A stretch of 64,000 bases of DNA from a phage. Both the position numbers and the translations under genes were made by a program. Of the stretch, positions 2,523 through 53,024 are shown one piece after another (the stretch's first letter is position 1; each line of letters begins with the position of its first letter). The notes under the pieces are model-generated. The model saw only the letters and a list, made by a program, of their open reading frames with translations. It was not told where the DNA came from and ran no database searches. Location of the stretch: NCBI GenBank assembly GCA_036253035.1, contig GCA_036253035.1_4123.1; one strand, 5' to 3'.

Positions 2523-2523
2523 A

Positions 2524-6462: not shown

Positions 6463-6470
6463 AATTCGCC

Positions 6471-6662: not shown

Positions 6663-6810
6663 TAATGTTCTTCTCTTAAAAAGCGTTTGATGGCATAATC
6701 TAAATAAAATTCATAACACATACTATCTCTGTTCTTTATCCATATTTTGTAATCGGATTTTATATTACGCAACAAATAATTTGTATTAATTGTGTAATAA
6801 TCTAATCGCC

Positions 6811-12259: not shown

Positions 12260-12260
12260 G

Positions 12261-15444: not shown

Positions 15445-15474
15445 AGGGACTCCCTTGAAAATAATATCAATCAT

Positions 15475-15502
15475 ATAATATATGAATTGTATAAAAAGTC
15501 AA
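15475..15502 (-). promoter_or_regulatory. sigma70-like promoter for the LGTNYQE array (TTGACT-N16-TATTAT)
   Basis: Minus-strand -35 at 15497-15502, -10 at 15475-15480; only promoter-like site upstream of the 26-gene array. Confidence 0.5.
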
Positions 15503-15693
15503 TAACATTTTATTCGTAATACCCCTTTATCGAAGTCGCTAAGGTTACCCGCCCTTTAGCCCCCTACGCATTTTGCCATAGTCCAATCCCTTTTATTTTA
15601 AAAAAGTCAAGGGATTACCTATGCATTTTTTTAACGCATTATTTTAAAAACGCCTTGACTTTTTTCTGAATCAGTACTAGATCCCTTTACGCA

Positions 15694-36650: not shown

Positions 36651-36836
36651 TTAGTGTCTGTATATAAGTAATAGTAAGAATACGTACTGCACATCTTCAT
36701 CTTTAGTATTGAGTACTGTACGTATTGCGTCATTAAACAAGAATATAGTACTTGGGTCATGAGAATTTAAAGGGGTTCTGGGTACGGCATGTTTGTAGTT
36801 CCCTTTAACAAATTGTGTGTAGTATTCTCTATGCAT
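36651..36836 (-). CDS. MHKEYY-family small protein
   Basis: MHREYYTQFVKGNYKH...LLLLIYRH. Confidence 0.6.
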   Translation of the reverse strand: MHREYYTQFVKGNYKHAVPRTPLNSHDPSTIFLFNDAIRTVLNTKDEDVQYVFLLLLIYRH

Positions 36837-36837
36837 A

Positions 36838-37023
36838 TTAGTACCTATATATTAGGGCGAGAATGTAGTACAATTCATATGGAATGTAATTTGGGGTGAT
36901 CGCACACTGTGTATGGTAAATGAATTGTTCGGTATTTTTCTTATCCTTGATATCTATTGGGATTAGTGGTATAAGCATTTGGGAGTTTAGATCCAGATGG
37001 CTTAAGTAGAATTCTTTATGCAT
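36838..37023 (-). CDS. MHKEYY-family small protein
   Basis: MHKEFYLSHL...ILALIYRY. Confidence 0.6.
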   Translation of the reverse strand: MHKEFYLSHLDLNSQMLIPLIPIDIKDKKNTEQFIYHTQCAITPNYIPYELYYILALIYRY

Positions 37024-37032
37024 ATTGTTCTC

Positions 37033-37221
37033 TTAGAATACGAAAGCTAGGTACAGGGTATGATACAGTACTCGATGATAGCTGTCAAAATCTAGTATAC
37101 ATGCTTTAGTGCACATAGTAAAATACACTTTATCATTTTGTGCATTGATACCGCGAGGTTTATCTAATAGATTAGTTCTGAGGTACATTGGGAAATATTT
37201 TGTGTAGTATTCTTTATGCAT
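37033..37221 (-). CDS. MHKEYY-family small protein
   Basis: Start moved to ATG of MHKEYYTKYFPMYL abutting upstream stop. Confidence 0.55.
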   Translation of the reverse strand: MHKEYYTKYFPMYLRTNLLDKPRGINAQNDKVYFTMCTKACILDFDSYHRVLYHTLYLAFVF

Positions 37222-37222
37222 G

Positions 37223-37405
37223 TTAGTACCTGAATATAAGTAGGATAGTGTTATATAGCTGGTCATAACTACTACTATTTTCTATACTTCGTTCTATGCA
37301 GTTATTGAATCCCAGTACTGCCAAATCGTTATCCAGGGGGACTTTGTATCTGGCGTAGTGTTCAAAAATGCTGGGGAGAAATTGTGTGTAGTATTCTTTG
37401 TGCAT
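37223..37405 (-). CDS. MHKEYY-family small protein
   Basis: MHKEYYTQFLPSIFEHY...ILLIFRY. Confidence 0.6.
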   Translation of the reverse strand: MHKEYYTQFLPSIFEHYARYKVPLDNDLAVLGFNNCIERSIENSSSYDQLYNTILLIFRY

Positions 37406-37406
37406 A

Positions 37407-37592
37407 TTAGTACCTATATATTAGTAAAAGGATGTGATACAGTACTCGATTATAGTCTTCAATATATATCGAGGATTTAGTGCACTGAATGAAGTAGTCT
37501 TTTTCGTAGTTTTTTTCTATACCCAATGGTTCTGTTGGTACAAGGTGTTGGAGATACATTGGGAGTTTCTCTATGTAGTATTCTTTATACAT
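37407..37592 (-). CDS. MHKEYY-family small protein
   Basis: MYKEYYIEKLPMYLQHLVPTEPLGI...LLLIYRY. Confidence 0.6.
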   Translation of the reverse strand: MYKEYYIEKLPMYLQHLVPTEPLGIEKNYEKDYFIQCTKSSIYIEDYNRVLYHILLLIYRY

Positions 37593-37593
37593 G

Positions 37594-37776
37594 TTAGTAC
37601 CTGAATGTTAACATTACTACGTAGTACAGCATATATGGATTATCATCGTATATGAGCGTGTACTTAGTACATTGTTGAAACATTATCTTTGCGTGATCTT
37701 TTATTCCTATTGGTTCTGTTGGTATATGGTGCTGGAGATGCATTGGGAGATGTTCCCTGTAGTATTCTTTATACAT
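37594..37776 (-). CDS. MHKEYY-family small protein
   Basis: Start moved to ATG of MYKEYYREHLPMHLQHHIPTEPIGI. Confidence 0.55.
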   Translation of the reverse strand: MYKEYYREHLPMHLQHHIPTEPIGIKDHAKIMFQQCTKYTLIYDDNPYMLYYVVMLTFRY

Positions 37777-38829: not shown

Positions 38830-39015
38830 TTACATTTCAATAAGTTTAATTACTGCTCGGTACGTGTACTTAGTTGTCAGTGCTTCTTTAATAGAAATAC
38901 AGAAGTAATGTTGTTTGTCTCTTATACTGCCGCGTTTGTAGTACCACACATGGGAGTTGTGACTGTACTTGTCTCTGTCGGATAGTTGTTGGTAGTAGTA
39001 GCTTATATGATTCAT
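38830..39015 (-). CDS. MHKEYY-family small protein
   Basis: MNHISYYYQQL...KYTYRAVIKLIEM. Confidence 0.55.
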   Translation of the reverse strand: MNHISYYYQQLSDRDKYSHNSHVWYYKRGSIRDKQHYFCISIKEALTTKYTYRAVIKLIEM

Positions 39016-39067
39016 TATAATGTAATTAGCCTTACTATATTAAAGTACTCAGTTCCTGTTGCACCTT

Positions 39068-39262
39068 TTAGAACTTAAAGATGAGGTTCAGGATAGAGCG
39101 GTACTTAGTTTCAGGGAACGTATGTTCTATTGCATAACGTGTCACCATCCTGAAATCGTAATTATAATACAGATTATCCTTTCTCATAGGTGGTGCTAAA
39201 GAGAATGATAGCTGTTCTTGTTTGGGTAGTTTACTACAATAGAAATCTTTATGATTATTCAT
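39068..39262 (-). CDS. MHKEYY-family small protein
   Basis: MNNHKDFYCSKL... Confidence 0.55.
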   Translation of the reverse strand: MNNHKDFYCSKLPKQEQLSFSLAPPMRKDNLYYNYDFRMVTRYAIEHTFPETKYRSILNLIFKF

Positions 39263-39464
39263 AGAAATATATTAGTCCTATTAAACCTGAGTACATAATA
39301 TTTTTGTTATTACATTCGATTGCTTCTAGAGTACTACGTATACAATTATTAAAGCAATCTCTGGCGTGTGGTGTATCTATACTTAAAGGTGATACACTCC
39401 TTAGAAACAATTGTTCTTCGTTGCTAAGGTATTTGGTGTAGAATTCTTTATGTTCAGTATTCAT
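39255..39464 (-). CDS. MHKEYY-family small protein
   Basis: MNTEHKEFYTKYL... Confidence 0.55.
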   Translation of the reverse strand: MNTEHKEFYTKYLSNEEQLFLRSVSPLSIDTPHARDCFNNCIRSTLEAIECNNKNIMYSGLIGLIYFYE

Positions 39465-39465
39465 A

Positions 39466-39669
39466 TTAGTACTCGATTAAAAGGGCAAGGATATAATAGT
39501 ATTGCATACTTTCTGCCCCTTGTAAAGCATTTCTTATGATATTACTCCTGTACGAGTTCAGGAGTTTAGGACAACGTTTGTAGTGTATAAAAGTATTTTG
39601 TGTATACAGTAGGCTTTCTCGTAGACCTTTTGTTGGTAGTGCATCGATGTAGTACTGTTCAATGTTCAT
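39466..39669 (-). CDS. MHKEYY-family small protein
   Basis: MNIEQYYIDAL... Confidence 0.5.
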   Translation of the reverse strand: MNIEQYYIDALPTKGLRESLLYTQNTFIHYKRCPKLLNSYRSNIIRNALQGAESMQYYYILALLIEY

Positions 39670-39893
39670 ATAGATAGCAGTACTAAGATTTTTGATAATT
39701 GTTTATTGCTATCCCCGCAGATGTTGCTGTGTAAAATACTCACAATGAGGGTATCAATTGCATTGTTCATCATAAGGGTGCATCCTGGACTATTATAATT
39801 TTTTAGCTCAATTAGCCACGAACTATCCGAGAGAAATTCCCCGTACTCTAGTTCATTTAGAGTATTGAGGTAGTACTTAAGAGTATTTGTCAT
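39666..39893 (-). CDS. small protein, first gene of MHKEYY array
   Basis: MTNTLKYYLNTL...; ATG with AAGGAGAA RBS downstream of promoter. Confidence 0.5.
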   Translation of the reverse strand: MTNTLKYYLNTLNELEYGEFLSDSSWLIELKNYNSPGCTLMMNNAIDTLIVSILHSNICGDSNKQLSKILVLLSI

Positions 39894-39918
39894 GTGTAGT
39901 TCTCCTTATATTCCTTCT

Positions 39919-39947
39919 ATAGTACACCAGTACTGAAAGGATGTCAA
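39919..39947 (-). promoter_or_regulatory. sigma70-like promoter (TTGACA-N17-TACTAT) for MHKEYY array
   Basis: -35 at 39942-39947, -10 at 39919-39924; divergent from plus-strand array promoter. Confidence 0.5.
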
Positions 39948-39959
39948 GGGTTTTCTTTT

Positions 39960-39995
39960 TGTATTAAATATAGTATAATGAATAAGGAGGGATTT
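39960..39995 (+). promoter_or_regulatory. plus-array promoter-like box (ATAGTATAATGAATAA) plus AGGAGG SD
   Basis: TATAAT at 39974-39979, no convincing -35; same module as between all downstream array genes. Confidence 0.5.
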
Positions 39996-41198
39996 ATGTT
40001 ACCTTTTGGAAGAATGATTAAGTACGCAAATATTGCACCAGGTCCAGAACCTGTAGAGTTCTCAGATGTTTTACAACAACATTATACAAACTGTATGTAT
40101 CTACATAACCCAACTAATACTTTATATGGTTATGGTAGTAATAACATGTATCAATTTGGTCTTGGGAATTCAGCAGCAGTTTCGTCATTTACAGTACTTG
40201 CAAGGAACTGTGCAGCCTTTTGGCTTGGTGTTCAAGGTTCATTGATGATTGATTTGGATAATAAAATATACTACACTGGGTCGGTTGGTGCATTTTCTGA
40301 TTATGGAGATGCAACACCTGTTAATGGTTATTTGACAACATGGACTGATGTTACTGTTGCATTTAATAAAATAGGTGTTATGGCTAATATGATCAAGAGT
40401 GTATATATAGGTGAAAGTACTAGAATATTATTAACCGATGGTAGAGTAATTGCGTGTGGAAGAAATACTAATGGTGAATGTGGCTCTGGTAATAAAAATT
40501 CCATCCCTACACTCACAGTTATGACTAATATGGGTGAAGTTACACATATGGCATGTTCATTACAAGGAACGCACTATATCAAATCAAATAAAGATGCATG
40601 GTTTTGTGGTAAGGATAACTTTGGTGAAAGTGGATGTGGTGGTAGTTCTGTTGTATATTTGAACAAATTCGTGATTAGTAATGTAGAACATATTAGTACT
40701 ACATACGATGTTACTTGGTGGTTTACTACTGGTGGGTCTGTATATTATAGCGGGGTTAACAGTACTGGACAAGCTGGTAATGGTACGACTACATCGGTAA
40801 ATCAGCTAACACCAATTAGGAACACATCGGTCACGGTTGATGTAAGTAAGTACAGTACTTTTATTTGTCCAAGTAATATGGGAAATGCATCAATTGGTGC
40901 ACCTATGGCACAATACGCACCATATGTTAGAAGTAGTGGTGCTAACTCATATGGTCAAGAAGGTAATGGAACTAATACATTAGTTAGAACTTGGAATATT
41001 TTTAATCTTAGTGCAATAAGTGGTGGTTATGACAATGTTCTTATGGCATCTAAAGATTGGAGCAGAACCATAATAATTACTAAAGATTATAAATTATATG
41101 CATGTGGTGGCTGGAATGGAAATGGTGGTAGATTGCCAGATGGCACTTATAGTATTACTACACTAACATTAATGCCAACGCAGTTATGGCAACAATAG
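39996..41198 (+). CDS. RCC1-like beta-propeller repeat protein with conserved N-terminal leader
   Basis: Starts MLPFGRMIKYANIAPGP; repeated G-x-N-x-x-G-Q/E-x-G-x-G motifs; AGGAGG RBS. Confidence 0.8.
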   Translation: MLPFGRMIKYANIAPGPEPVEFSDVLQQHYTNCMYLHNPTNTLYGYGSNNMYQFGLGNSAAVSSFTVLARNCAAFWLGVQGSLMIDLDNKIYYTGSVGAFSDYGDATPVNGYLTTWTDVTVAFNKIGVMANMIKSVYIGESTRILLTDGRVIACGRNTNGECGSGNKNSIPTLTVMTNMGEVTHMACSLQGTHYIKSNKDAWFCGKDNFGESGCGGSSVVYLNKFVISNVEHISTTYDVTWWFTTGGSVYYSGVNSTGQAGNGTTTSVNQLTPIRNTSVTVDVSKYSTFICPSNMGNASIGAPMAQYAPYVRSSGANSYGQEGNGTNTLVRTWNIFNLSAISGGYDNVLMASKDWSRTIIITKDYKLYACGGWNGNGGRLPDGTYSITTLTLMPTQLWQQ

Positions 41199-41206
41199 GA
41201 GGGAAT

Positions 41207-42316
41207 ATGTTACCTTTTGGAAGAATGATTAGGTATGGAAATATTGTCCCTGGTCCTAAAAAAATAATTAAAGTTGGTGCTTCTACCCAAGGCCAATTCT
41301 TATTGACTGATTCACATGATTTATATTACATAGGTAGAAATCAAGGTGGTGAATCTGGAAATGGTAATACCAACACGGTGTCTTCGTGGACATTAGTAAG
41401 TGCAGATGTTTCTAATTTTTTCGTGGGTGATCGTACACTTGTTATTATTAAAAATGATAATACGATATGGACATCAGGTCAAACGTACTGGTTCTCATCT
41501 TCTACAACTACTTCTTACAGTACTGTATTAGTTGAAAGAACTAATTGGTTTACCAATGCTATACCAGTAAGTGAAATTGCTAATATTGTATGTACAAATG
41601 GTTTAATATTTGTACTTAGCACTAATTCAGTACTCTATGGTGCAGGAGATAATGGATATCGTGGTTCTTTGGGTATTGGTTCCTCATCAATTTACACATT
41701 AACTCAATGTGCTACGAACGTTCGTAAAGTAATGACCAATGCGAATGATAGTATGTATCTTACATTAGATAATAAGCTATATAGTTCTGGATGGAATAGT
41801 AGTGGGCAGCATGGTACGGGGAACCAAACACAAATTAACACTTGGGGATTGCGTAGTTCTGGTGTAATCGATGCAGCCATTGGTGGTAATGCATTAAATT
41901 ACTATAATGGTACATCATATTTCGTATGTGGTCAAACTCCAAACTTTCTTAGTTCAGGCACGACTACATTCCGTGCCGTTCCTGTAAGTACTTTGCCTAA
42001 TAGTTCTCCGTTGTTTATGACGAATTCACCTGCCTTAAATACTGCTACACAAATGGTAATTACTAGTACATATCAGAAGGGTGTTGGGGCGAACCGTGGT
42101 TTGGGATTAAACAATTCTCAAACTGGTGCTATATATAGTGCTACCAATTTACAATTACCCGTTGAAGTTAGTGAGATTAGGGATGTTCTTTTTAGTGATG
42201 GTTTGACATCGATATTAACCAAAAATGGAGATGTGTATAGTACTGGATCGTATTACGCCATTCCAGGTGCAATCGAGGATGTTGCAGTCTTTACTAAAAT
42301 TGATTTACCAAAATAA
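41207..42316 (+). CDS. beta-propeller-like repeat protein with conserved N-terminal leader
   Basis: Starts MLPFGRMIRYGNIVPGP; Gly/Ser/Thr/Asn-rich repeats; coupled to upstream gene. Confidence 0.8.
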   Translation: MLPFGRMIRYGNIVPGPKKIIKVGASTQGQFLLTDSHDLYYIGRNQGGESGNGNTNTVSSWTLVSADVSNFFVGDRTLVIIKNDNTIWTSGQTYWFSSSTTTSYSTVLVERTNWFTNAIPVSEIANIVCTNGLIFVLSTNSVLYGAGDNGYRGSLGIGSSSIYTLTQCATNVRKVMTNANDSMYLTLDNKLYSSGWNSSGQHGTGNQTQINTWGLRSSGVIDAAIGGNALNYYNGTSYFVCGQTPNFLSSGTTTFRAVPVSTLPNSSPLFMTNSPALNTATQMVITSTYQKGVGANRGLGLNNSQTGAIYSATNLQLPVEVSEIRDVLFSDGLTSILTKNGDVYSTGSYYAIPGAIEDVAVFTKIDLPK

Positions 42317-42387
42317 CATAATGCCAGTACAGAGTACTGGCTTTCTTATTTGTATTAAATATAGTATAATGAATAAAGGAGGGAAAT
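42317..42387 (+). promoter_or_regulatory. intergenic module: terminator hairpin, T-run, TATAAT box, AGGAGG
   Basis: Hairpin GCCAGTACAGAGTACTGGC 42323-42341 + T-run; TATAAT 42365-42370. Confidence 0.6.
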
Positions 42388-43527
42388 ATGTTACCTTTTG
42401 CAAGAATGGTTAAGTACGGGAATATCGCACCTGAACTGATTCTACCTAAAAACAGGTTACAATGTTCTGCTGATGCCAAATTTTATTTACACACAAATGG
42501 CAATCTATATTGGTTTGGTTCTTCAGCATATGGACAAAGTGGTAATGGTTCATTGGACTCTTCAACTGAATGGACTCTTGTCAACTCAAATGTTACACGA
42601 TATTGGGGTGGGGTACAAGGAACAATTGCTATAAAGAAAGATGGTACTATTTGGTACACTGGTAGACGTACTGTTATTCCAATACTATCTTCAAACACTA
42701 ACGGCGTTTGGGTTGATATAACACAGAACTTTACTGATTTCGGTGTCAGTGCAGATGATATTGATAGTGTTGTGATATCTTCGTGTATGCGTGTATTTTT
42801 AAAAAATGGAAAGTGGTTCTACTGTGGTGCTGGTACTGGTGGTGTTTTTGGGAATGGATCAACTTCAAGCGTTTCACGATTCACCTATAGTACAATAGAA
42901 AATGTTATCAGTGCTGGTTGTGCAATATATAGTACTGGATTAGTACTAAATGATGGTTCATATTGGTATGCAGGTAGAACGTTTGTATCAGGAACGACGA
43001 CACAAAACTTGCTCACATTTACACAAGATACTTCGATTAGTAATGCAATTAAAGCAGTCAATACAAATGAAACTTCTTATATATTTCTTAATGATGGTAA
43101 TGTTAAAGTTGCATCTATTAACGACTATGGACAAGCAGGTACAGGAAATAGGTCAGTAGCCCCAATGAGTACATTAATTCCAAATTTATCATTCCAAGGA
43201 GAAGTGGAGTTGGTGGGTGAGCTTGGGACAAACCTTACCGGACCATCCTGTATAATTAATAATAATAATAAGTTATTTTCATGTGGCCTTAATTCAAATG
43301 GTCAATGTGGTATTGGTACAACTGATATGTATATAACATCATTCGCTGAAATGGATCTTACTGCATTAGAAGGTAGTAATCTTAGTAGTTTTTGTAAGAG
43401 CTATTCTTATACGATGTTAGTTGACGAATATAATAATTTATACACATGTGGTGTACCCAATCTTACTGGAATGTCTTCAACTACTGTACCAACAAGGGTT
43501 CCTGATTCACTTCTACCGTGGAAATAA
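42388..43527 (+). CDS. RCC1-like beta-propeller repeat protein with conserved N-terminal leader
   Basis: Starts MLPFARMVKYGNIAP; YGQSGNGS, YGQAGTGN, NGQCGIGT repeats. Confidence 0.8.
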   Translation: MLPFARMVKYGNIAPELILPKNRLQCSADAKFYLHTNGNLYWFGSSAYGQSGNGSLDSSTEWTLVNSNVTRYWGGVQGTIAIKKDGTIWYTGRRTVIPILSSNTNGVWVDITQNFTDFGVSADDIDSVVISSCMRVFLKNGKWFYCGAGTGGVFGNGSTSSVSRFTYSTIENVISAGCAIYSTGLVLNDGSYWYAGRTFVSGTTTQNLLTFTQDTSISNAIKAVNTNETSYIFLNDGNVKVASINDYGQAGTGNRSVAPMSTLIPNLSFQGEVELVGELGTNLTGPSCIINNNNKLFSCGLNSNGQCGIGTTDMYITSFAEMDLTALEGSNLSSFCKSYSYTMLVDEYNNLYTCGVPNLTGMSSTTVPTRVPDSLLPWK

Positions 43528-43598
43528 TATAATGCCAGTACACTGTACTGGCTTTCTTATTTGTATTAAATATAGTATAATGAATAAAGGAGGGAAAT
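43528..43598 (+). promoter_or_regulatory. intergenic terminator/promoter/SD module
   Basis: Hairpin 43534-43552 + T-run; TATAAT 43576-43581; near-identical to 42317 copy. Confidence 0.6.
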
Positions 43599-44747
43599 AT
43601 GTTACCTTTTGCAAGAATGATGAATTATGGGAATATTGCCCCTGGTAAGGATAGGCGTTTTAAAATATATTCAAGTGATTCTATGTATCTCCATGATACT
43701 TATACTAATAAGTTGTATGCATCTTCTGCGACGAATTGGGGTACTGGTACAGGTGTAGCATCGAGTAAATTTATTCTTTGTGCAGAGAATGTTAAACGAG
43801 TTCTATTGGAAGATAACAGTAGTAGTTGTCAAATGTATGAAGAGAAAGGTACTGGAAAAGTTTTTATCACTGGTAACACGAAGGCATTCACTGGTGTAAC
43901 TGATACAAAAACTTTGTGGACGGACTGTACTACGTGGATAACATCAGGTGGTATTAATGTTTCTGATATAAAATACATGAGTAGTTTTAATGATATGAAG
44001 GTGAATTTGATAACAAACGATGGTACGTTGTATTGTTGTGGAGTTAACAATAACTCGAACCTATCATCATTTGGTGATGGTACAAACATTAATTCTTTTA
44101 ACACATTCAAAAGGGTAGATACTATAACTTCGGTTAAAAAGGCAGTTGGTAACATATACCTAAAAGAAGATAATACTTTATGGGGTTGTGGTTTTAACTA
44201 TTACTATCAGTTAGGTACAGGTAATCAAACTTCTATTACTGGGGTGACGATGATTGCTTCAGATGTTATAGATTTTGATGTAAGTTATCAGAGTACATTT
44301 TTTATTAAATCGGATAATAATTTGTACGCTTGTGGTAAACAGTTCGGTGCACAATACGGGAACGAATTTGGCACAGGTGGTACTTCTTCATCTACCGATA
44401 TACAATACAAAACTCCGACATTATTGAGTTCAGGAGTTTATACTCTATATACGTGTGTTAGTAACATGGCATCACATATAGCTAAAGGTGATGAAGTTCT
44501 ATACGCATCTGGGTCGAATGGATTTGGTCAATTAGGTGTTGGTAATAATATTAATCAGTACTCATATACTCCTTCGTATACTTCGTTTAATAGTTCGTGT
44601 AATTTGGTACGCACTCCATCTGGTTCACTTATACTTACGGACACTGAGCAATTATATTATTGTGGGTATGCTATGGTAGTAATGGGGGGAATTGCTGGAC
44701 AAAACATTCTTAGTTATACAGAAGTTGATATGTCATTTATACAATGA
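43599..44747 (+). CDS. RCC1-like beta-propeller repeat protein with conserved N-terminal leader
   Basis: Starts MLPFARMMNYGNIAP; close paralog of 46888..48036. Confidence 0.8.
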   Translation: MLPFARMMNYGNIAPGKDRRFKIYSSDSMYLHDTYTNKLYASSATNWGTGTGVASSKFILCAENVKRVLLEDNSSSCQMYEEKGTGKVFITGNTKAFTGVTDTKTLWTDCTTWITSGGINVSDIKYMSSFNDMKVNLITNDGTLYCCGVNNNSNLSSFGDGTNINSFNTFKRVDTITSVKKAVGNIYLKEDNTLWGCGFNYYYQLGTGNQTSITGVTMIASDVIDFDVSYQSTFFIKSDNNLYACGKQFGAQYGNEFGTGGTSSSTDIQYKTPTLLSSGVYTLYTCVSNMASHIAKGDEVLYASGSNGFGQLGVGNNINQYSYTPSYTSFNSSCNLVRTPSGSLILTDTEQLYYCGYAMVVMGGIAGQNILSYTEVDMSFIQ

Positions 44748-44818
44748 TTTAATGCCAGTACTCTGTACTGGCTTTCTTATTTGTATTAAATATAGTATAA
44801 TGAATAAAGGAGGAATTT
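44748..44818 (+). promoter_or_regulatory. intergenic terminator/promoter/SD module
   Basis: Same ~70-bp module. Confidence 0.6.
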
Positions 44819-46006
44819 ATGTTACCTTTTGCAAGAATGATGAATTATGGGAATATTGCCCCAGTACCACTTCAAATTAAGAAAATAATCCCAACTGATT
44901 TAGATGTTGTGGTTCTGTATACGGATGGTCAACTATATGCACGTGGGAATAATAGTTTTGGGAAATTCGGTAGAGGAAACAACACTGCATTAAAATCATG
45001 GACATTAATTAGAGAAAACGTTAACGATTGCTGGCTTACACAAGGAACTTTATTAGTAAAAGACAATGACTCAAATTATTATTACTGTGGATATGGTAGT
45101 CATATTGGTTTATCAACTAGTACTACTACGTTTTTAAGTTATAACCAATATATTCAAAATTTGTACACACAAAGTTCAAGTACTTCAATTAAACAGATGT
45201 ATGGAGGTACTACGTGGTTTACTGTGTTAATGGATAATAATACAATATGGAGTACAGGGTGGAACAGTGCTAGACAATTCGCAGATGGTACAGGAACTAC
45301 TTATGAAATAACCGATGGTTCATTTGTAAAAGCGGTCACACCTAATGTTGATATTGCACAAATACAGTCAACAAATAACTGTGTATTGTTGTTTGATAAA
45401 CAAAATAATTTATATATTGGTGGTGTTACATCCGGTATAAGTTCCGCGACTACATGGACTTCATATAATGAATATACTTTATATCAACCAAATACAACAT
45501 ACACAAAAACGTTACAATACACAGGATGCTCAACTGGTGCAGTAAGTGCTTTAGTTGAAAATCCAAATACAGGAGCACGTCAGTTCCTTGTCGGTGGGTT
45601 AGCTAATAATGGGGCATGGGGAAATAACACTACATCTAGCTCTGTTAATGGAGTTTTAGGAAATAACAGTACTACGTTACCACCCGGTACTTTGTATTCA
45701 ATTCATACTGGATACCCACCACAATCTAGTATACTAATTACGAGTACTGGTGTATATGCAACTGGTTTAAATGCCAGTAGTTATGCTGGTTCATTGGGTA
45801 TTGGTACTAGTGCAACTGTTGGTAAGTTTACTGCATGTCCAATGCCTACACAAATAACATATTCTATGTATGATAAAATAAAAATATATAGAGGTTCATA
45901 TCGTACATTTCTAACTGATATGAAAAATATATATTCAACCGGAACTTATGATGATGGTGGTCCTAGTACAACTAGATATGTACTAGATACACCCCGACAA
46001 TTATAA
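44819..46006 (+). CDS. beta-propeller-like repeat protein with conserved N-terminal leader
   Basis: Starts MLPFARMMNYGNIAP. Confidence 0.8.
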   Translation: MLPFARMMNYGNIAPVPLQIKKIIPTDLDVVVLYTDGQLYARGNNSFGKFGRGNNTALKSWTLIRENVNDCWLTQGTLLVKDNDSNYYYCGYGSHIGLSTSTTTFLSYNQYIQNLYTQSSSTSIKQMYGGTTWFTVLMDNNTIWSTGWNSARQFADGTGTTYEITDGSFVKAVTPNVDIAQIQSTNNCVLLFDKQNNLYIGGVTSGISSATTWTSYNEYTLYQPNTTYTKTLQYTGCSTGAVSALVENPNTGARQFLVGGLANNGAWGNNTTSSSVNGVLGNNSTTLPPGTLYSIHTGYPPQSSILITSTGVYATGLNASSYAGSLGIGTSATVGKFTACPMPTQITYSMYDKIKIYRGSYRTFLTDMKNIYSTGTYDDGGPSTTRYVLDTPRQL

Positions 46007-46078
46007 TATAATAGCCAGTACTCAGTACTGGCTTTTCTTTTTGTATTAAATATATTATAATGAATAAAGGAGGGAATT
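46007..46078 (+). promoter_or_regulatory. intergenic terminator/promoter/SD module
   Basis: Same module (variant). Confidence 0.55.
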
Positions 46079-46816
46079 ATGTTACCTTTTGGAAGAATGA
46101 TTAAGTACGGGAATGAAATTGAATATAAGCCACATGGTGAACAATTAATCACGACAATAGGAACAACACAATTTACAGTTCCTGCTGGCGTTACCGAAAT
46201 ATCAGTATGTGTTATTTCGCCGGGTGGTCAACGTGGTGCTGGCGGCGGCTTATCGTGGCGTAATAATATTCCGGTTACTAGTGGTGAGTACTTAAGTGTT
46301 TCTCTTACACATCCCAACACTACTACAGCAGTTGAAAACGGTTTATATCGTGGAACTGAAAAACTATGTGTTAGCTTCACTGGTGAATATAGGGTTGGTG
46401 GACTAGGTGGGAAAGCTGCTAACGCTATTAATGATGGTGGTGGTAATGGGGGCAACGCTGGTGTAAGTGGTGGTGCAGTCATTGGTGGTGGTGCTGGTGG
46501 CTACACTGGTAAAGGTGGTAACGGAGATGCAATCACTGGTGAAAATGGTGCTGGCGGCGGCGGTGGTGGTGGTGCATTCTATAATACCTCGTTCATTGGT
46601 ACGGGTGGTGGTACTGGTATCATTGTTCAAGGTGCTAATGGTATTGGCGGTAGATACGATGGTTCATATAATGGTGGTGCTGGTAGTGGTGGTGCTGGTA
46701 AGATGTATGGTGGTGGTGGTAGTATATGGGATAATTTTTCTTATACGGCTGCTGGTGGTGGTGCTGTGCGAATAATATGGGGACGTGGGAGATATTATCC
46801 TAACAATTCAGTCTAA
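46079..46816 (+). CDS. glycine-rich repeat protein with conserved N-terminal leader
   Basis: Starts MLPFGRMIKYGN; C-terminal two-thirds dominated by GGxGG/GGAGG repeats. Confidence 0.75.
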   Translation: MLPFGRMIKYGNEIEYKPHGEQLITTIGTTQFTVPAGVTEISVCVISPGGQRGAGGGLSWRNNIPVTSGEYLSVSLTHPNTTTAVENGLYRGTEKLCVSFTGEYRVGGLGGKAANAINDGGGNGGNAGVSGGAVIGGGAGGYTGKGGNGDAITGENGAGGGGGGGAFYNTSFIGTGGGTGIIVQGANGIGGRYDGSYNGGAGSGGAGKMYGGGGSIWDNFSYTAAGGGAVRIIWGRGRYYPNNSV

Positions 46817-46887
46817 AATATAGGCCAGTACTTGATACTAGCATTCTTATTTGTATTAAATATAGTATAATGAATAAGGAGGGAAAT
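46817..46887 (+). promoter_or_regulatory. intergenic terminator/promoter/SD module
   Basis: Same module. Confidence 0.55.
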
Positions 46888-48036
46888 ATGTTACCTTTTG
46901 TTAGAATGATTAAGTACGGGAATATTGCACCTAACCCGCCTGATCCTAGTACACGTTTTAAAATATATTCCGGCGGTAGTGCTATGTATTTTCATGATAC
47001 ATACACGAAAAATTTGTATGCATCAGCGGCAGTCAGTCAGGGTACTGGAACTGGTGTTTCGTCGAGTAAATTTATTCTTAGTGCGACTAATGTTAAAAGA
47101 GTCCTTTTGGAAAATAACAGTAGTGGTTGTCAATTATATGAAGAAGACGGTACTGGAAAAGTGTTTATAACTGGAAGTCCGAGTGCGTTTTCTGGTTCAG
47201 GTGCATATTATAACACGTGGACAGATTGTACTTCATGGATAACATCCAGTGGTATTAATGTTTCTGATATAAAATACATGAGTAGTTACAGTGATCTTAA
47301 AGTGAATTTGATAACAACTGATGGTACTTTATATTGCTGCGGAACAAACAGCACATCAACCAGATCATCTTTTGGTAATGGCACAAATACAAATTCATTT
47401 AACGCCTTTGTTAAGATTGAAGCCATATCATCGGTAAAAAAAGCTGTTGGTAACATATACCTAAAAGAAGATAATACATTATGGGGTTGTGGTATTAACA
47501 CTTACTATCAGTTAGGGACAGGCAATCAAACTGCTAGTACTGGAGTTGTTAGAATACAGACTAATGTTATAGATGTCGATGTAAGTTATCAGAGTACATT
47601 TTTTATTAAAGATGATAATAAATTGTACGCTTGTGGTACACAATATGGACTATCATATGGTAATGAATTCGGCACAGGCACAACACTTAAGCAATACACA
47701 ACACCAACTTTATTGAATTCGGATGTACAGAATATATACTGTTGTGTTGGTAATATGGCTTCACATATTCTCAGATTTGGGACTACAATATTTGCAACTG
47801 GGGTTAACACTGGTGGGCAATTGGGTGTTGGTAATCTTACAAATCAGTTCTATTATACCAAGTCTTATGAAAATTTTAATAGTTCTTACAGTTTAGTACT
47901 GAATAACATCGGTAGTTTGATTCTCACAGATGAAGGTAAGTTATTTTATACTGGTTTTTCCAATCTAGTAATGGGTGGAAGTTCTGGGCAGTACACTACA
48001 AGATATACCGAAGTTGATATGTCATTTATACAATGA
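46888..48036 (+). CDS. RCC1-like beta-propeller repeat protein with conserved N-terminal leader
   Basis: Starts MLPFVRMIKYGNIAP; paralog of 43599..44747 (both end ...YTEVDMSFIQ). Confidence 0.8.
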   Translation: MLPFVRMIKYGNIAPNPPDPSTRFKIYSGGSAMYFHDTYTKNLYASAAVSQGTGTGVSSSKFILSATNVKRVLLENNSSGCQLYEEDGTGKVFITGSPSAFSGSGAYYNTWTDCTSWITSSGINVSDIKYMSSYSDLKVNLITTDGTLYCCGTNSTSTRSSFGNGTNTNSFNAFVKIEAISSVKKAVGNIYLKEDNTLWGCGINTYYQLGTGNQTASTGVVRIQTNVIDVDVSYQSTFFIKDDNKLYACGTQYGLSYGNEFGTGTTLKQYTTPTLLNSDVQNIYCCVGNMASHILRFGTTIFATGVNTGGQLGVGNLTNQFYYTKSYENFNSSYSLVLNNIGSLILTDEGKLFYTGFSNLVMGGSSGQYTTRYTEVDMSFIQ

Positions 48037-48107
48037 ATTAAAGCCAGTACTTGATACTGGCATTTCTTTTTGTATTAAATATAGTATAATGAATAAAGGA
48101 GGGAATT
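48037..48107 (+). promoter_or_regulatory. intergenic terminator/promoter/SD module
   Basis: Same module. Confidence 0.55.
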
Positions 48108-49271
48108 ATGTTACCTTTTGCAAGAATGGTTAAGTACGGGAATATAGCACCAGCACCACCGAAATTTAAAAAAATACTCGCCAATAACTACAACGTTGCA
48201 GTTTTAACAAGCAGTGGGGATTTATATGTACGTGGTCAGAATTCAAATGGTCTTTTGGGTTTAGGTCACAAAGAAACCGTTACTACATGGACGTTAAGTA
48301 CTTCTGGTGTTGAAGATTTTTGGTTAAGTACCACTTCTTTGGTTATTAAGAAATTCAACAATGAAATATGGTACAGTGGTTCGTCAACTACTGTTGGTAT
48401 GACAGGGGCAGCCGTATCAGTGTGGACTTCTGCTATGCCAACATTCAATACATTAACATTACCAATATTAGATATGGCAGTTAGTAATCAGACTACAAGT
48501 GTATTACTTTCAGATCGAACAATATGGAGTACTGGGGCAGGGGCAGAAGGTCAGTTAGGTAATGGGACAACAACTAACAACGTTAATACTAAATTCGTCC
48601 AGAGCACAGTCTCTACTGAAGAAGACCAATTACCATTTAAATTGTTTGCAAGTAATCTAATGCATGGTTATGTTACTGCTAACGGTTGGTTATACTATAC
48701 AGGCCGTGTCAATGCAATTAGCACTAGTGGTACTTCTCTATATACAGTATACACTAGTGCTCCTACGAGTCTAAGGAGTGTAATTAATATCGAGTACTAT
48801 GTAAATAATAACAATTCAATGGCGATGGCTATTGGTACTGATCCAAATGGAAAAACCATAATTGCCAATGGTGGGGCGAAAAGATTTGGTGCACAGGCAG
48901 ATGGAGTGAATAGTACTGATATAAGAGCATTTGCTGTTCAAACTGCTTCCCTAATGCCACCAGGTGATGTACTCAGTATGGCCCATAATACTTCATATTA
49001 TAACCAAGTTATTGCTACAACAGATGGTATATATTGTTGTGGCTACAACCAATCAACACAAGCTGGTATGTTAGGTGTTGGTACATCTACTAACGCATTA
49101 GTATATACCAAAGCAATCGTACCTGATGGTTTTGATTATAGTAAATCACAAATGTCAGGTGGGTATAACCGTACTTATATAACTGATGGTAATTTTGTAT
49201 ATAGTACTGGGGCTGATGTCACATATGGTGGTATTAATAGCTTAGTATTTGTAATAGATTCACCATTTTAA
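48108..49271 (+). CDS. RCC1-like beta-propeller repeat protein with conserved N-terminal leader
   Basis: Starts MLPFARMVKYGNIAP; ends ...SLVFVIDSPF like the frameshifted copy. Confidence 0.8.
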   Translation: MLPFARMVKYGNIAPAPPKFKKILANNYNVAVLTSSGDLYVRGQNSNGLLGLGHKETVTTWTLSTSGVEDFWLSTTSLVIKKFNNEIWYSGSSTTVGMTGAAVSVWTSAMPTFNTLTLPILDMAVSNQTTSVLLSDRTIWSTGAGAEGQLGNGTTTNNVNTKFVQSTVSTEEDQLPFKLFASNLMHGYVTANGWLYYTGRVNAISTSGTSLYTVYTSAPTSLRSVINIEYYVNNNNSMAMAIGTDPNGKTIIANGGAKRFGAQADGVNSTDIRAFAVQTASLMPPGDVLSMAHNTSYYNQVIATTDGIYCCGYNQSTQAGMLGVGTSTNALVYTKAIVPDGFDYSKSQMSGGYNRTYITDGNFVYSTGADVTYGGINSLVFVIDSPF

Positions 49272-49342
49272 AAAGAATGCCAGTACTTGATACTGGCTTT
49301 CTTATTTGTATTAAATATAGTATAATGAATAAGGAGGGAATT
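49272..49342 (+). promoter_or_regulatory. intergenic terminator/promoter/SD module
   Basis: Same module; track ORF start lies inside it. Confidence 0.55.
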
Positions 49343-50494
49343 ATGTTACCTTTTGGAAGAATGGTTAAGTACGGGAATATTGCACCAGTTCCGGTAGTTC
49401 CTACAATAAAAGATTTTAAGATTGGCTTTTCACATGAAGTGTTATTGGACAGTGAAGGTGATGTGTGGGGTATTGGATATAATACCGCTGGTCAGTTGGG
49501 ATTTCTGGACGCTAACACAAATTCAATAGGAATGTGGTCTAAGATACATGAGAATGTTAGATTAATTGGCGTTACTACCAATTATACTGTAGTTGTTACA
49601 AATGATAATAGAATACTTTACGCCGGAAATAACTTAATTTCTAGTACTACAACGCTTGGGTGGAACGATATAACGTCTAGTATGGGAGCGGTTGTAGTGG
49701 ATAGCATCGATGCATTATATTGCACAGATGGCATGATGCATATTAAAACTGCTGATGGTTCTTTATACGCATATGGACGTAATATGAACGCAAACGCTGG
49801 AGTTACTGGTGTTTCTGGAGTTATTAGTGTTGCAACTAAAGTTAGTGGTTTACCATCGGCTGTGAAAGATATACGATATACGTTTAGTTATGGTACAATA
49901 CTATGTCAATTAGATACCACCTCGGTATATGGATGGGGAAGAAATGTCAATGGTGAATTAGGTCAGGGGAACGCAGCCGCAGTTCCTACCCCATCCCAAA
50001 GGGCGGGTGCTTCTATTGCTATAGGTACTTCGTATAATGCTACTGCAATTGTTTCCGGTACTGCATCGTTGGTTACATGTGGTGGACAAAATGATGGTCA
50101 GTTAGGTAATGGTATTACTACTGCTGGTAATGTATACACATATGGTGCTAGAGCATACCCAAGCGATCTTAATAATATAAGAAGTCCAGTGGATTGCAGT
50201 ACAACTTATACATCTGCATTTATGAGTCCAGATGGCATATATTACACGGGTTCGAACCGAAGTGTGTTTGGTGGTCCGAGCGGGGCTGCCACTGTTGCAT
50301 TATATACCAAATGTAGTGATTTACCAATATTATATTCTAATATAACACAGTGGTGTAGTGGTACTATTGGTGGTGCGATATGTAGCAGTACTGAATTATA
50401 TCAGTGTGGGACCGGTAGATACATTGCCGGAGATGGGCAGAACGCAACTAGGTATGGGTTTAGAAAGACACCATTACCTTGGGATGTTTATTGA
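49343..50494 (+). CDS. RCC1-like beta-propeller repeat protein with conserved N-terminal leader
   Basis: Start moved to MLPFGRMVKYGNIAP after AGGAGG. Confidence 0.8.
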   Translation: MLPFGRMVKYGNIAPVPVVPTIKDFKIGFSHEVLLDSEGDVWGIGYNTAGQLGFLDANTNSIGMWSKIHENVRLIGVTTNYTVVVTNDNRILYAGNNLISSTTTLGWNDITSSMGAVVVDSIDALYCTDGMMHIKTADGSLYAYGRNMNANAGVTGVSGVISVATKVSGLPSAVKDIRYTFSYGTILCQLDTTSVYGWGRNVNGELGQGNAAAVPTPSQRAGASIAIGTSYNATAIVSGTASLVTCGGQNDGQLGNGITTAGNVYTYGARAYPSDLNNIRSPVDCSTTYTSAFMSPDGIYYTGSNRSVFGGPSGAATVALYTKCSDLPILYSNITQWCSGTIGGAICSSTELYQCGTGRYIAGDGQNATRYGFRKTPLPWDVY

Positions 50495-50566
50495 CATAAA
50501 GCCAGTACTCAAGTACTGGCATTTCTTTTTGTATTAAATATAGTATAATGAATAAAGGAGGAATTT
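50495..50566 (+). promoter_or_regulatory. intergenic terminator/promoter/SD module
   Basis: Same module. Confidence 0.55.
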
Positions 50567-51742
50567 ATGTTACCTTTTGCAAGAATGGTTAAGTACGGGA
50601 ATGTTAAACCAGCACCTTCGGGTGTACTGAAGATTGCTACATCTACAACACATGTGGGTATGTTGTTCGATAGTGGCAATTTATATCTACGTGGTAATGG
50701 TGCACAATATAGGCTAGGAAATGATAGTACTGCGTATTTACAAAATGGATGGATACAGTGTCCATATAAAGTTGCTAATGTTTGGTGTTTATCCGCAGGG
50801 ACCATTATACTTACGACTGAAGGAGAATTTTACTTAGCAGGACAAATGGGATACCTTGGTGTGGTCAAATCGCCTGTTCCAGGATGGACAAATATTACAT
50901 CAATATTGTCTACAATACCAAGCCTTACTACAGTTCAAGATATAGCTTCTACTGAGACTGTCGCTTCAAATGGTACTTTATTAATTATGTTAAGCAATGG
51001 TGATTTATACGGGATAGGTAGTAATACTGGAGGTGAACTGGGTGTTTCTGGTGCAAAAGCGACACCGATTAAGATTGATACTGGTGTTACTATGATTGCT
51101 GGTACACACTTTGGTGGTGCTTTACATTATGTTAAAAATGGTCAATATTACAGATGTGGTAATAACGCAAGTTATAACCTAGGTACAAGTGCATCTAAAC
51201 TATCCACATTTACAGTAAGTACTGATATATCTGGAACAGTTATTGGTATTTCATGTACTAATTTGACGACTTCAGTACTTACATCGAATAAGGGTAATAT
51301 TAGAGTATATACTGCTGGGATAAACACTGATTATTGTTTAGGAATTGGGTATGGAGACACGAAGGTTACAATGAGTCCATTTAGTGCTACTCCCGAAATT
51401 AGTGGTATTATACCAGATGCTGGGTCGATGAACAATCACAGTTTGAATTATTTTATAATGGCAATGACACAGAATGGTAAACTTTATACATGTGGTAGTG
51501 GTGTTCCTCTTGGTTGGCCTGTTACTACTGCATCAGAAAGATCTTATTACCACCAGGTACAATATGAGGATATGGATGTTGCACCAGATGTTAATGCATT
51601 TTCAGTTCAAGGTGGTTCTGGTGTGTTATACGCGTTAGTGGGGACTAATGAGGTGTACTGGTGTGGTAACGGGTCTATGTTTCAGGAACAGAGTCCAGGT
51701 ACACAACAAGTTAAAATGAAGAAAATGATTTTACCAGAATAA
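50567..51742 (+). CDS. beta-propeller-like repeat protein with conserved N-terminal leader
   Basis: Starts MLPFARMVKYGNVKP. Confidence 0.8.
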   Translation: MLPFARMVKYGNVKPAPSGVLKIATSTTHVGMLFDSGNLYLRGNGAQYRLGNDSTAYLQNGWIQCPYKVANVWCLSAGTIILTTEGEFYLAGQMGYLGVVKSPVPGWTNITSILSTIPSLTTVQDIASTETVASNGTLLIMLSNGDLYGIGSNTGGELGVSGAKATPIKIDTGVTMIAGTHFGGALHYVKNGQYYRCGNNASYNLGTSASKLSTFTVSTDISGTVIGISCTNLTTSVLTSNKGNIRVYTAGINTDYCLGIGYGDTKVTMSPFSATPEISGIIPDAGSMNNHSLNYFIMAMTQNGKLYTCGSGVPLGWPVTTASERSYYHQVQYEDMDVAPDVNAFSVQGGSGVLYALVGTNEVYWCGNGSMFQEQSPGTQQVKMKKMILPE

Positions 51743-51826
51743 AATGTGAAATACAATGCATGTACTCTGTACTGGCTTTTCTTATTTATATTAAATATAG
51801 TATAATGAATAAAGGGGAGTAAAATT
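51743..51826 (+). promoter_or_regulatory. intergenic terminator/promoter/SD module (variant)
   Basis: Hairpin variant + TATAAT + AAGGGGAG. Confidence 0.5.
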
Positions 51827-53014
51827 ATGTTACCTTTCGGAAGAATGTTTGATTATGGGAATATTAAGCCTGTACCTGAACCTGAAGAGTTTGATGAAGT
51901 TTTACAGCAACAATATTACAATACACTATATTTGCATAAACCCACTAATACATTATATGGGTACGGATTAAACAGTAACAAACAGCTTAGTTTATTAATT
52001 GTACCTACTGAATTTATGGTACTGAGTACTGATTGTAAAAAATATTGGACTGGTGTGTTTGGTACATTGATGGTAAGTCTTTCGAACAAAATATACTACT
52101 GTGGTAGTAGAATTGCGTTCCCACAAGCGACTACCGCATCTAACACCGATGGGTGGAAATATGTAACTGAGTACTTTGACGCTTTAGGTGTAGTTGGTGA
52201 TGATATTAAGAGTGTATATATAGGTGCGAGTACTAGAGTATTATTAAATGATGGTCGAGTTATGTGTTGTGGTAACAATGCTTATGCTGAATGTGGTACG
52301 GGTGTTACTGGAGCAATTAATACTTTACAATTTGTACCACAATTTGGTACTGATGTAAAGAGTATGTATTGTTCGACATATGGTACGCATTATATTAACT
52401 CCAGAAACGAATCATATTTTGTTGGAGAAAATACAAATGGTACTAGTGGTACTGGAACTGCTAATGATTCTATTGTAGCTGCACATACATTAACTGCACG
52501 TAACGTAAAACACATTAGTACTAATTACAATACGACTTGGTGGTTTTTTGAAAATGGTGATATATATTGGTGTGGTCTGAATAATATGGGTCAGGCTGGT
52601 AATAATAGTGTTACTAGTGGGTATACGTTGTTAGCTGTTAAGAATACTGTACTTTCTGGTACAATTGATCTCCCGACATTGAAATCTCCTAGTAGTTTAT
52701 CAACGGGCTATGTGGGAGCACCAATTGCTTCATATTCATCACGAATTAGAAATGGTGGAATAAATGATCTTGGTCAACTAGGGTTGGGTACAATAACACC
52801 GTTCGAACGATCATGGATAGATATGAATATTAGTATTATTGGTACATATGATGATGTATTGACAATATCCAAAGATATTAGATCATCAATGATATTAACA
52901 AAAGATTATAAATTATATGCATGTGGTGGATATAATTCAAATGGTCAATCATTACCTGATGGATCATATGTTACCAGTACATTAAAATTAATGGCAAATA
53001 TGCCGTGGTATTAA
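51827..53014 (+). CDS. RCC1-like beta-propeller repeat protein with conserved N-terminal leader
   Basis: Starts MLPFGRMFDYGNIKP; paralog of first array gene 39996..41198. Confidence 0.8.
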   Translation: MLPFGRMFDYGNIKPVPEPEEFDEVLQQQYYNTLYLHKPTNTLYGYGLNSNKQLSLLIVPTEFMVLSTDCKKYWTGVFGTLMVSLSNKIYYCGSRIAFPQATTASNTDGWKYVTEYFDALGVVGDDIKSVYIGASTRVLLNDGRVMCCGNNAYAECGTGVTGAINTLQFVPQFGTDVKSMYCSTYGTHYINSRNESYFVGENTNGTSGTGTANDSIVAAHTLTARNVKHISTNYNTTWWFFENGDIYWCGLNNMGQAGNNSVTSGYTLLAVKNTVLSGTIDLPTLKSPSSLSTGYVGAPIASYSSRIRNGGINDLGQLGLGTITPFERSWIDMNISIIGTYDDVLTISKDIRSSMILTKDYKLYACGGYNSNGQSLPDGSYVTSTLKLMANMPWY

Positions 53015-53024
53015 GGAGAGAGAT

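Follow-up and report, generated by a model that had tools for sequence, protein, structure and literature searches.

A repeated hairpin/TAAATA module with a coding leader in the propeller-gene array of a jumbo coliphage: a putative late cassette and recombination joint

The 64,000-nt stretch of phage DNA analyzed here (contig GCA_036253035.1_4123.1 of GenBank assembly GCA_036253035.1; hereafter the window) contains an array of genes, most of them for RCC1-like β-propeller proteins, in which the spacers between positions 42317 and 51826 are near-identical copies of a single module. When ten arrays are compared (those of the window, SP27, G17, UE-S1, 121Q, phAPEC6, EJP2, PBECO4, slurp01 and WPEC3), it is apparent that the hexamer TAAATA is invariant in the modules, that the repeat continues into the coding sequence, and that the gene order of the arrays is rearranged at the junctions between genes. 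We suggest, with a probability of roughly 0.6, that each repeat is a terminator/late-promoter/ribosome-binding-site/leader cassette, which would insulate late transcription units from one another and provide the homology for shuffling them.

In the mechanism that we propose from sequence comparison, the hairpin (CCAGTAC-loop-GTACTGG) and the T-rich run that follows it would end or attenuate the transcript of the upstream gene. A promoter without a -35 element, the essential element of which would be TAAATA, 14 nt past the stem, would be used by the host RNA polymerase in association with a phage gp55-like late sigma factor. Transcription is predicted to start about 5-8 nt past TAAATA, inside the hexamer TATAAT, giving a leader of about 20 nt with a strong AGGAGG Shine-Dalgarno (SD) sequence, and the first 15 codons would add a conserved leader peptide common to RCC1, Kelch and unknown-fold proteins. 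The array would be transcribed as a series of late units, most with one or two genes, for virion-associated propeller proteins. Because the module and leader, about 115 nt in all, are the only sequence that these genes share, homologous recombination would delete, duplicate and reorder whole genes, and the same recombination, besides purifying selection, would keep the copies alike (concerted evolution).

That RCC1 arrays exist, arose by tandem duplication and have products in virions has been published before. The repeated module and its tie to array rearrangement appear to be undescribed: our literature search found no description of array modules, of Asteriusvirus promoters or of AGTACT enrichment, and none in the literature searched of a link between the module and array rearrangement.

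The repeated module and its coding leader

Nine spacers lie within positions 42317-51826, exactly where a preliminary description of the sequence had placed nine repeated modules. Eight are 71-72 nt long and the last is 84 nt, and all share a layout of hairpin, T-run, box and SD sequence. An 18-nt core of the box, ATTAAATATAGTATAATG, recurs with zero or one mismatch in 10 copies, against a chance expectation from shuffles of 0, and the longer 38-nt box is exact in two copies and within three mismatches in six (again 0 expected); the other three boxes have a 1-nt deletion (AATAAGGAGG) or an altered SD sequence. The hairpin is less uniform than had been described. Its literal form, GCCAGTAC-N3/4-GTACTGGC, is exact in 5/9 spacers and once more at 56072 (0 expected in shuffles), while two of the nine are 7-bp variants (GCCAGTACTTGATACTGGC) and two have decayed, at 46824 (-3.6 kcal/mol, z -0.06) and at 51758 (-5.7 kcal/mol, z -0.7). 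In the remaining seven, a stable GC-containing stem-loop (folding energy -10.3 to -14.5 kcal/mol, z -3.7 to -6.2) directly follows the stop codon. Rfam covariance models gave no family match across 39000-58000, with two sub-threshold chance matches only.

Mean pairwise identity is 86.8% in the spacers (range 74-96) and 85.4% in the first 45 coding nucleotides, compared with 60.0% in the next 600 nt of coding sequence and 59.2% in the last 150 nt of the upstream gene, neither distinguishable from the 58.0% of a shuffled control. The conserved unit is therefore about 115 nt long and includes the coding leader: the spacer parts are as first described, but the repeat, which had been taken to end at the ATG, runs 45 nt past it and encodes MLPFxRMxxYGN(I/V)AP. 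This 15-residue leader heads proteins of differing folds (RCC1, Kelch and PHROG 4474) and is also found in Salmonella phage Munch (MIPFARILxYGN) and in gene 001 of phage GAP32 (MLPFSRIIQYGNIAP). Since there are synonymous differences within the leader, the peptide itself appears to be selected, and it may be a virion-targeting or attachment tag.

The module is restricted to the array, with 10-12 copies in the window and 9-12 in each related genome, all within one array. In the whole SP27 genome, assembled for this search (347,152 bp), the box (at most three mismatches in 18 nt) has nine matches in the array and a single one elsewhere, a look-alike (CTAAATAAAGTATAATG) at 265904 that follows a terminator in the tail-gene region, and no CCAGTA..TACTGG hairpin was found in the 347,152 bp outside the array and its flank. 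A genome-wide promoter class was rejected on these grounds. A scan of IMG/VR for the 19-nt box found multiple copies in 121Q only, together with single chance matches in 13 other contigs.

Two types of module can be distinguished. Type 1 (ATTAAATATAGTATAATGAATAAAGGAGGG) predominates in PBECO4/121Q-like phages, whereas every one of the 12 EJP2 copies, and one copy in the window, belongs to type 2 (hairpin TACCAGTACTGAAATACGTACTGGTA, then T7-GTAAATACATTATAATTATTTTAATTTTGGAGAA). The architecture extends to another genus, in that the arrays of phage Munch, whose best protein match is about 40% identical, have hairpin-T6-AATTAAATATAGTATAAT. The single gene 001 of GAP32 is preceded by hairpin-T-run-GGTAAATA and then GATATT, ahead of the same leader, so that here TAAATA outlasts TATAAT.

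Promoter class and stem-loop

The ten genomes hold 118 junctions, of which 17 are coupled or adjoining pseudogene gaps and 101 have a real spacer. TAAATA is exact in 101/101 real spacers, 24-45 nt (mostly 31-32) upstream of the ATG. The hexamer that follows 3 bp later is TATAAT in 83 copies, TATAAC in 8, TAACGA in 4, TATGAT in 3, TATAAA in 2 and another sequence in 1. A perfect TATAAT had been proposed as the key box, and this holds for 83/101 copies, whereas 18/101 have a different hexamer beside the invariant TAAATA. The absence of a usable -35 at 16-18 bp, also noted earlier, was borne out: the best hexamer at that distance from TATAAT matches at 3/6 positions, no module TATAAT passes a sigma-70 scan, nothing in the -35 region is conserved between module types, and the TG of an extended -10 is absent from the modules, which have AG, AT or GA instead. 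Because the module has no sigma-70 -35, a phage factor is the likelier reader, as had been suggested, but through TAAATA, which had gone unseen.

Elsewhere in SP27, no hexamer is more frequent than TAAATA in the -15 to -75 windows of genes in the structural/replication region (35/77), and it precedes the genes for the major capsid protein, sheath, tail fibre and baseplate; the leading upstream hexamers of early-region genes are TATAAT (26/50) and AGTACT. The SP27 occurrences of TAAATA are strand-specific (80 vs 22 for the reverse complement) and peak 30-45 nt from starts. A purine lies 6 nt downstream at 47/57 sites, which is the T4 start-site geometry, and several sites fall 8-14 nt after a hairpin and T-run, a layout like that of the module. 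The module box matches the T4 late octamer TATAAATA at 6/8 positions. In T4-family late promoters this octamer is located at -13 to -6, with no -35 and with -13/-12 variable in some relatives (PMC2988020). For the relatives GAP32 and CBB, a late motif ATAAATA and a gp55-like gene have been reported (PMC5259590), and gp33 orthologues have been attributed to Group 2 jumbo phages (PMC7824862).

When SP27 was searched with a profile of 115 gp55 homologues, a sole open reading frame (ORF) matched, at 320612-321451 (E 1.9e-12), which also matches PHROG 12791, 'sigma factor for late transcription', with E 3e-154. This gene of the SP27 record (LC494302.1) is deposited as 'histidine ammonia-lyase' and is a gp55-family late sigma factor. 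A second region, 339068-339583, was a weak tblastn candidate for gp55 and was discarded as a tail-fibre assembly protein. Mass spectrometry of phAPEC6 virions has identified the array proteins gp003, 005, 006, 007, 009, 010, 549 and 551 (PMC7247149); the first six are orthologues or neighbours of window genes 48108, 49343, 50567 and 54948. GAP32 Gp1 is also a virion protein (PMC5259590). These observations point to the module box being a T4-type late promoter with TAAATA as its core, probably read with a gp55-like sigma factor.

Alternatively, TATAAT could be a -10-only promoter for host sigma-70 or a phage RpoD-like sigma factor, with TAAATA incidental, the T-rich tract UP-like, and the array expressed early/middle or constitutively; in a mixed version, a sigma-70 -10 and a late box would overlap and give expression through the whole cycle. 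An RpoD-like sigma factor is encoded by the phage family (PMC5259590; PMC11895373), TATAAT is the commonest upstream hexamer of early-region genes, and it is kept in both module types and in Munch despite differing flanks; generic SP27 late sites mostly have no TATAAT downstream. This does not fit readily with the poor and unconserved -35 region or the missing TG, nor with the copies that have TATAAC or TATAAA, or the four that have no such hexamer, all of which retain TAAATA. Loss of the T at -7 is incompatible with sigma-70 recognition of a -10 element. Where the phage does have sigma-70-type promoters, 2-20 kb away, they take the clear form AGTACTTGCAA-N16-TATAAT, an architecture absent from the module, and the array proteins are virion-associated. 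We therefore regard a promoter based on TATAAT as unlikely.

Three further promoter assignments were tried and dropped. The module was considered as a variant of the phage early promoter, AGTACT-N21-TATAGT and AGTACT-N21-TATAAT having equal spacing; the -35 TTGCAA is unmatched and the spacing is lost in type 2 modules. Inspection of TTTGTATTA as a T4 MotA box gave a spacing to the -10 of 7 bp, not 11-13 bp, and the divergent 'TGAAACG' promoter class of GAP32/CBB had 8 loose matches in SP27 and none in the array.

For the hairpin, a terminator function is suggested by its position and by covariation of its stem. In the G17 record (MK327931.1) the same hairpins of the orthologous array are annotated as Rho-independent terminators (ARNOLD, -10 to -13 kcal/mol), with no promoter annotated there. 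We used the stem arms of 37 distinct copies, including those of Munch, with the 3-8-nt loops replaced by a placeholder. In 4/9 stem pairs both sides have changed; for instance, the two types differ by G-C versus A-U, WPEC3 has U-A in place of C-G, and Munch has A-U and U-A in place of C-G. The covariation score was 0.191 compared with 0.147 +/- 0.012 in shuffles (0/500 reach the observed value) and 0.02-0.06 in slid registers; the inner five pairs, AGTAC/GTACT, never vary and are hence uninformative. A sense-strand G-U wobble bias was also considered as proof of an RNA hairpin, and was abandoned when the counts proved equal on both strands.

A different possibility is that CCAGTAC..GTACTGG acts mainly as DNA, being a palindrome to which a protein binds or an AGTACT-based recombination hotspot, rather than as an RNA terminator. 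AGTACT is over-represented 7.8-fold genome-wide, in all three frames, and is enriched in stretches of Munch and GAP32; moreover the inner AGTAC/GTACT is invariant, the outer pairs alone covary, and breakpoints cluster at the modules. However, the loop ranges in length from 3 to 8 nt, which a fixed dimeric binding site would not readily accommodate, the T-run is always on the coding-strand 3' side, and the element always comes right after a stop codon. The covariation of the outer pairs and the ARNOLD calls also favor a terminator, and we consider a primary role as a DNA site very unlikely.

The AGTACT palindrome has 237 sites in the window, about 12-fold over hexamers of the same composition, with none in 1-7557 or 11030-15672 and the highest density in 15673-40000. 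SP27 has 912 sites against 118 expected, the next palindrome being enriched 2.5-fold; the sites are found in every one of the three reading frames as well as outside coding sequence, and their flanks favor C-AGTACT-G. In the stretches examined, Munch has 43 sites (4.9 expected) and GAP32 has 24 in 3 kb (0.9 expected). The GC-rich palindromes CCATGG, AGGCCT, AGCGCT, CCCGGG, CCGCGG and CGCGCG are absent from SP27.

Several points weigh against the module being a late promoter preceded by an RNA terminator. The base before TAAATA is T in type 1 and G in type 2, whereas the other SP27 late sites prefer A (31/57; T in 5). The conservation of TATAAT in 83/101 copies, in both types and in another genus (Munch), exceeds what an AT-rich start region would need, and the hexamer may have a function of its own, perhaps a second one as a promoter of the sigma-70 type or for the RpoD-like sigma factor. 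The gp55-like gene was located in SP27, outside the window, rather than in the window's own genome; coverage in the phAPEC6 virion analysis was low, at 1-5 peptides; and a literature search found no transcript 5' or 3' ends, timing or in vitro transcription for any Asteriusvirus. The U-tract passes a simple terminator scan and is T-rich but interrupted (UUUCUUAUUU, UUUUCUUUUU or AUUUCUUUUU), so termination may be partial, and the hairpins may attenuate transcripts instead of stopping them fully. Of the stem changes that are not compensated, half could form wobble pairs on the opposite strand only, so that strand-specific selection on RNA is unsupported.

Array rearrangement and composition

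To compare gene content, array proteins were clustered at 75% identity and each array was written as a string of genes. Content and order differ in all 10 genomes; the window reads E A/G/B/C/F/R/M/D/H/X Y/Z I/J, SP27 reads N/E A/G/B/C/F/D/H/K..I/L, and 121Q reads B/O/A/G/C/F/R/D/H..K..I/J. Collinear blocks (at least 90% identity over at least 500 nt) were then defined between the window array and eight others. Junction zones make up about 11% of the array, and every one of the 46 block ends falls in such a zone: modules account for 37 ends, coupled junctions for 5 and the leader promoter for 4, with 0/46 inside gene bodies. The earlier proposal that the repeats are sites of cassette gain, loss and shuffling is strongly supported by the ten-genome comparison.

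The modules themselves are mosaic, their 5' flank tracking the upstream gene and their 3' half the downstream gene. The bases 5' of the stem are AATATAGG after F in the F/R, F/D, F/H and F/C junctions, and the SD variant AATAAGGAGGGAATT precedes D in M/D, F/D and R/D. The G/C junction of 121Q is identical to the G/B junction of the window, and B and C share the leader variant MLPFARMMNYGNIAP, so B was lost by a crossover within the repeat, in the shared leader. An orthologue that has a type 1 module in one genome has type 2 elsewhere; module type thus tracks the genome and not the gene, indicating homogenization within genomes.

These patterns could also be explained if the repeats are ordinary expression signals that are alike through recent tandem duplication or passive gene conversion, and if breakpoints are intergenic for no other reason than selection against chimeric propellers. 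It is accepted that such arrays originate by tandem duplication (PMC7247149), module type follows the genome as conversion predicts, and some hairpins are decaying. Two features of the block ends give the same caution about our own interpretation: they do not represent independent events, and breakpoints between genes would also be expected if broken propellers are selected against. However, the gene bodies are saturated, with nucleotide identity at the shuffled level and 22-37% amino-acid identity, so the duplications are old, and yet the 115-nt island is about 86% identical. The box and hairpin persist in a different genus, beyond the reach of conversion, the stems carry compensatory changes, and the mosaic modules put crossovers within the repeat. 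Passive repeats are in our view a distinctly improbable account, and we favor a cassette that itself serves as the recombination joint.

A broader claim, that module and leader form a dedicated diversification device across Rak2-like jumbo phage genera, is tentative and somewhat doubtful. If true, the late-promoter stem-loop cassette and its 15-residue address tag would let any β-propeller (RCC1, Kelch or other) be plugged into one locus, expressed and swapped there, and delivered into the virion; the AGTACT-based hairpin might then be a targeted recombination site for a phage protein. The propeller repertoire differs between every pair of isolates examined. This variation may bear on host interaction in phages under development for therapy, and the module and leader offer a handle for engineering or tracking it.

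Megablast with 39900-52000 gave matches to Asteriusvirus jumbo coliphages only (SP27 at 99.0%, PBECO4, 121Q, slurp01, phAPEC6 and others). The window comes from an Asteriusvirus, an E. coli jumbo phage, with SP27 as its closest relative, and the matched genes in relatives carry the annotation 'regulator of chromosome condensation RCC1 / DNA condensation protein'. RCC1-like propellers are encoded by 11/14 of the array genes, Kelch propellers by 53025-53972 and 54048-54938, and a PHROG 4474 protein of unknown fold and function by 46079-46816. Paralogous array proteins share 22-37% identity, with two pairs higher (49% and 67%). Genes 4 and 7 (43599-44747 and 46888-48036) are a younger duplicate pair with 67% amino-acid identity, 78-83% nucleotide identity across about 700 nt, and an identical C-terminal EVDMSFIQ and 3' flank; duplication inside the array is therefore ongoing.

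The coordinates of the modules and related features are collected in Table 1. It had been proposed that each gene is an independent transcription unit, and most spacers do have the terminator-, promoter- and SD-like parts that this would need. Not every gene can be its own unit, however, because 3/13 junctions between the 14 leader-bearing genes are 8-10 nt long and have no module; two hairpins, in addition, are decayed. A program-made ORF start at 49277, within module 7, is spurious, and the true start is 49343. The split of the last array gene (56138-57290) is also present in 121Q, and its 74-aa leader ORF recurs in PBECO4 and slurp01; at this position SP27 and phAPEC6 have an intact 389-aa gene of another orthogroup (L). 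The split gene is likely a pseudogene or an unrecognized frameshift. Upstream of the array, a minus-strand region (36810-37776) contains two direct-repeat families, D12 (4 x 63 nt) and D14 (3 x 78 nt), the copies of which are about 184-385 nt apart and fall where related genomes have a series of annotated paralogous mini-genes of ~180 bp.

Table 1. Positions in the window of the array, its modules (with predicted hairpins and putative promoter and SD elements) and its module-less junctions.
Feature	Position	Strand	Hairpin	TAAATA	TATAAT	SD	Remarks
Leader promoter (putative)	39951..39995	+	no upstream hairpin	39965-39970	39974-39979	39985-39990	T-run
Array of 14 genes	39996..56057	+					every gene starts with the 45-nt leader ATGTTACC(T/A)TT...
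Module 1	42317..42387	+	42323-42341 (-12.4 kcal/mol)	42356-42361	42365-42370	42377-42382	T-run
Module 2	43528..43598	+	43534-43552	43567-43572	43576-43581	43588-43593	
Module 3	44748..44818	+	44754-44772	44787-44792	44796-44801	44808-44813	
Module 4	46007..46078	+	46014-46032 (-13.3)	46047-46052	46056-46061	46068-46073	box variant TATATTATAAT
Module 5	46817..46887	+	46824-46842, decayed (GCCAGTACTTGATACTAGC)	46857-46862	46866-46871	46877-46882	
Module 6	48037..48107	+	48043-48061, 7 bp (-10.3)	48076-48081	48085-48090	48097-48102	
Module 7	49272..49342	+	49279-49297 (-14.5)	49312-49317	49321-49326	49332-49337	
Module 8	50495..50566	+	50501-50520, 4-nt loop (-13.5)	50535-50540	50544-50549	50556-50561	
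Module 9	51743..51826	+	51758-51776, decayed (GCATGTAC..GTACTGGC)	51792-51797	51801-51806	51814-51819, weak (GGGGAG)	84 nt
Divergent 'type 2' module	53973..54047	+	53979-54003 (-16 kcal/mol)	54013-54018	54022-54027	AGGAGA	T6
Last module	56058..56137	+	56070-56093, 10 bp (-16.4)	CTAAATA 56103-56109	none (TAACGA)		T7; precedes split gene
Split 15th array gene	56138-56362 + 56394-57290	+					74-aa leader-bearing ORF, then 298-aa RCC1 ORF
Coupled junctions without module	41199-41206, 53015-53024, 54939-54947						8-10 nt

Comparison with known systems

The closest parallel is with the elements of T4-like phages called PeSLs (promoter-early stem-loops; Arbiol et al. 2010), which combine a stop codon, stem-loop, promoter, SD sequence and start, have demonstrated promoter and terminator activity, are also characterized by excised mini-circles, and mediate modular shuffling (PMC2839356). 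Comeau et al. 2014 added middle-promoter PmSLs and leave a late version unmentioned (PMC4122927). The array module is similarly an intergenic composite of stop codon, stem-loop, putative promoter, SD sequence and start, present as near-identical copies in a plastic region, and in both systems the cassettes are where indels, replacements and displacements between related phages have their ends. The differences are equally clear. PeSLs have sigma-70-like -35/-10 elements at about 17 bp and PmSLs a Mot box, whereas the array module has a late-type TAAATA and no -35; PeSLs are scattered (about 50 per genome) beside unrelated ORFans, whereas the array module is confined to one array of paralogues; and the array repeat continues 45 nt into the coding sequence, in a different clade, the Rak2-like jumbo phages. 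It is not a strict PeSL, because it has no sigma-70 early promoter, is restricted to one array and extends into a coding leader.

Classical PeSL-like early cassettes do occur in the window, about 20 of them lying on the minus strand at ~15600-38000 before small ORFs (for example at 33147, 31463, 27112, 26181 and 22164). Their order is AAAAAGTACTTGCAA-N16-(G)TATAATGTTTTACATCA, a GGGGAGAA..TTCTCCCC stem-loop and an SD sequence. Such a strong sigma-70-type promoter, followed by a conserved hairpin, has little in common with the array module. If our interpretation is correct, the PeSL principle of regulatory cassettes as recombination joints would extend from T4-like to Rak2-like jumbo phages, from early and middle to late-type promoters, and from ORFans to a virion-borne propeller family.

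As a putative promoter, the module resembles T4 late promoters in having a -10-region box with the core TAAATA, no -35, AT-rich sequence downstream and a gp55-like sigma factor encoded in SP27. Late transcription of the T4 type begins about 6 nt past the box and requires gp55, gp33 and the sliding clamp (gp45). It differs in that the box matches 6/8 of the T4 consensus and is followed 3 bp downstream by TATAAT, which is absent from generic late promoters.

The internal proteins (IPs) of T-even phages share a short N-terminal leader, which is a capsid-targeting sequence. PeSL-like elements of the IP loci flank these hypervariable encapsidated proteins (Repoila et al. 1994, as described in PMC2839356). 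As in the array, locus-restricted repeats flank hypervariable, virion-carried products, and the repeats of the IP loci have been proposed to confine shuffling there (PMC2839356). Unlike the array module, the IP elements are based on early promoters of T4 and have weak, AT-rich stems, and the IPs are small proteins, whereas the array products are propellers of 245-400 aa. Were the module and leader indeed a diversification device, they would be the jumbo-phage counterpart of the T-even internal-protein loci.

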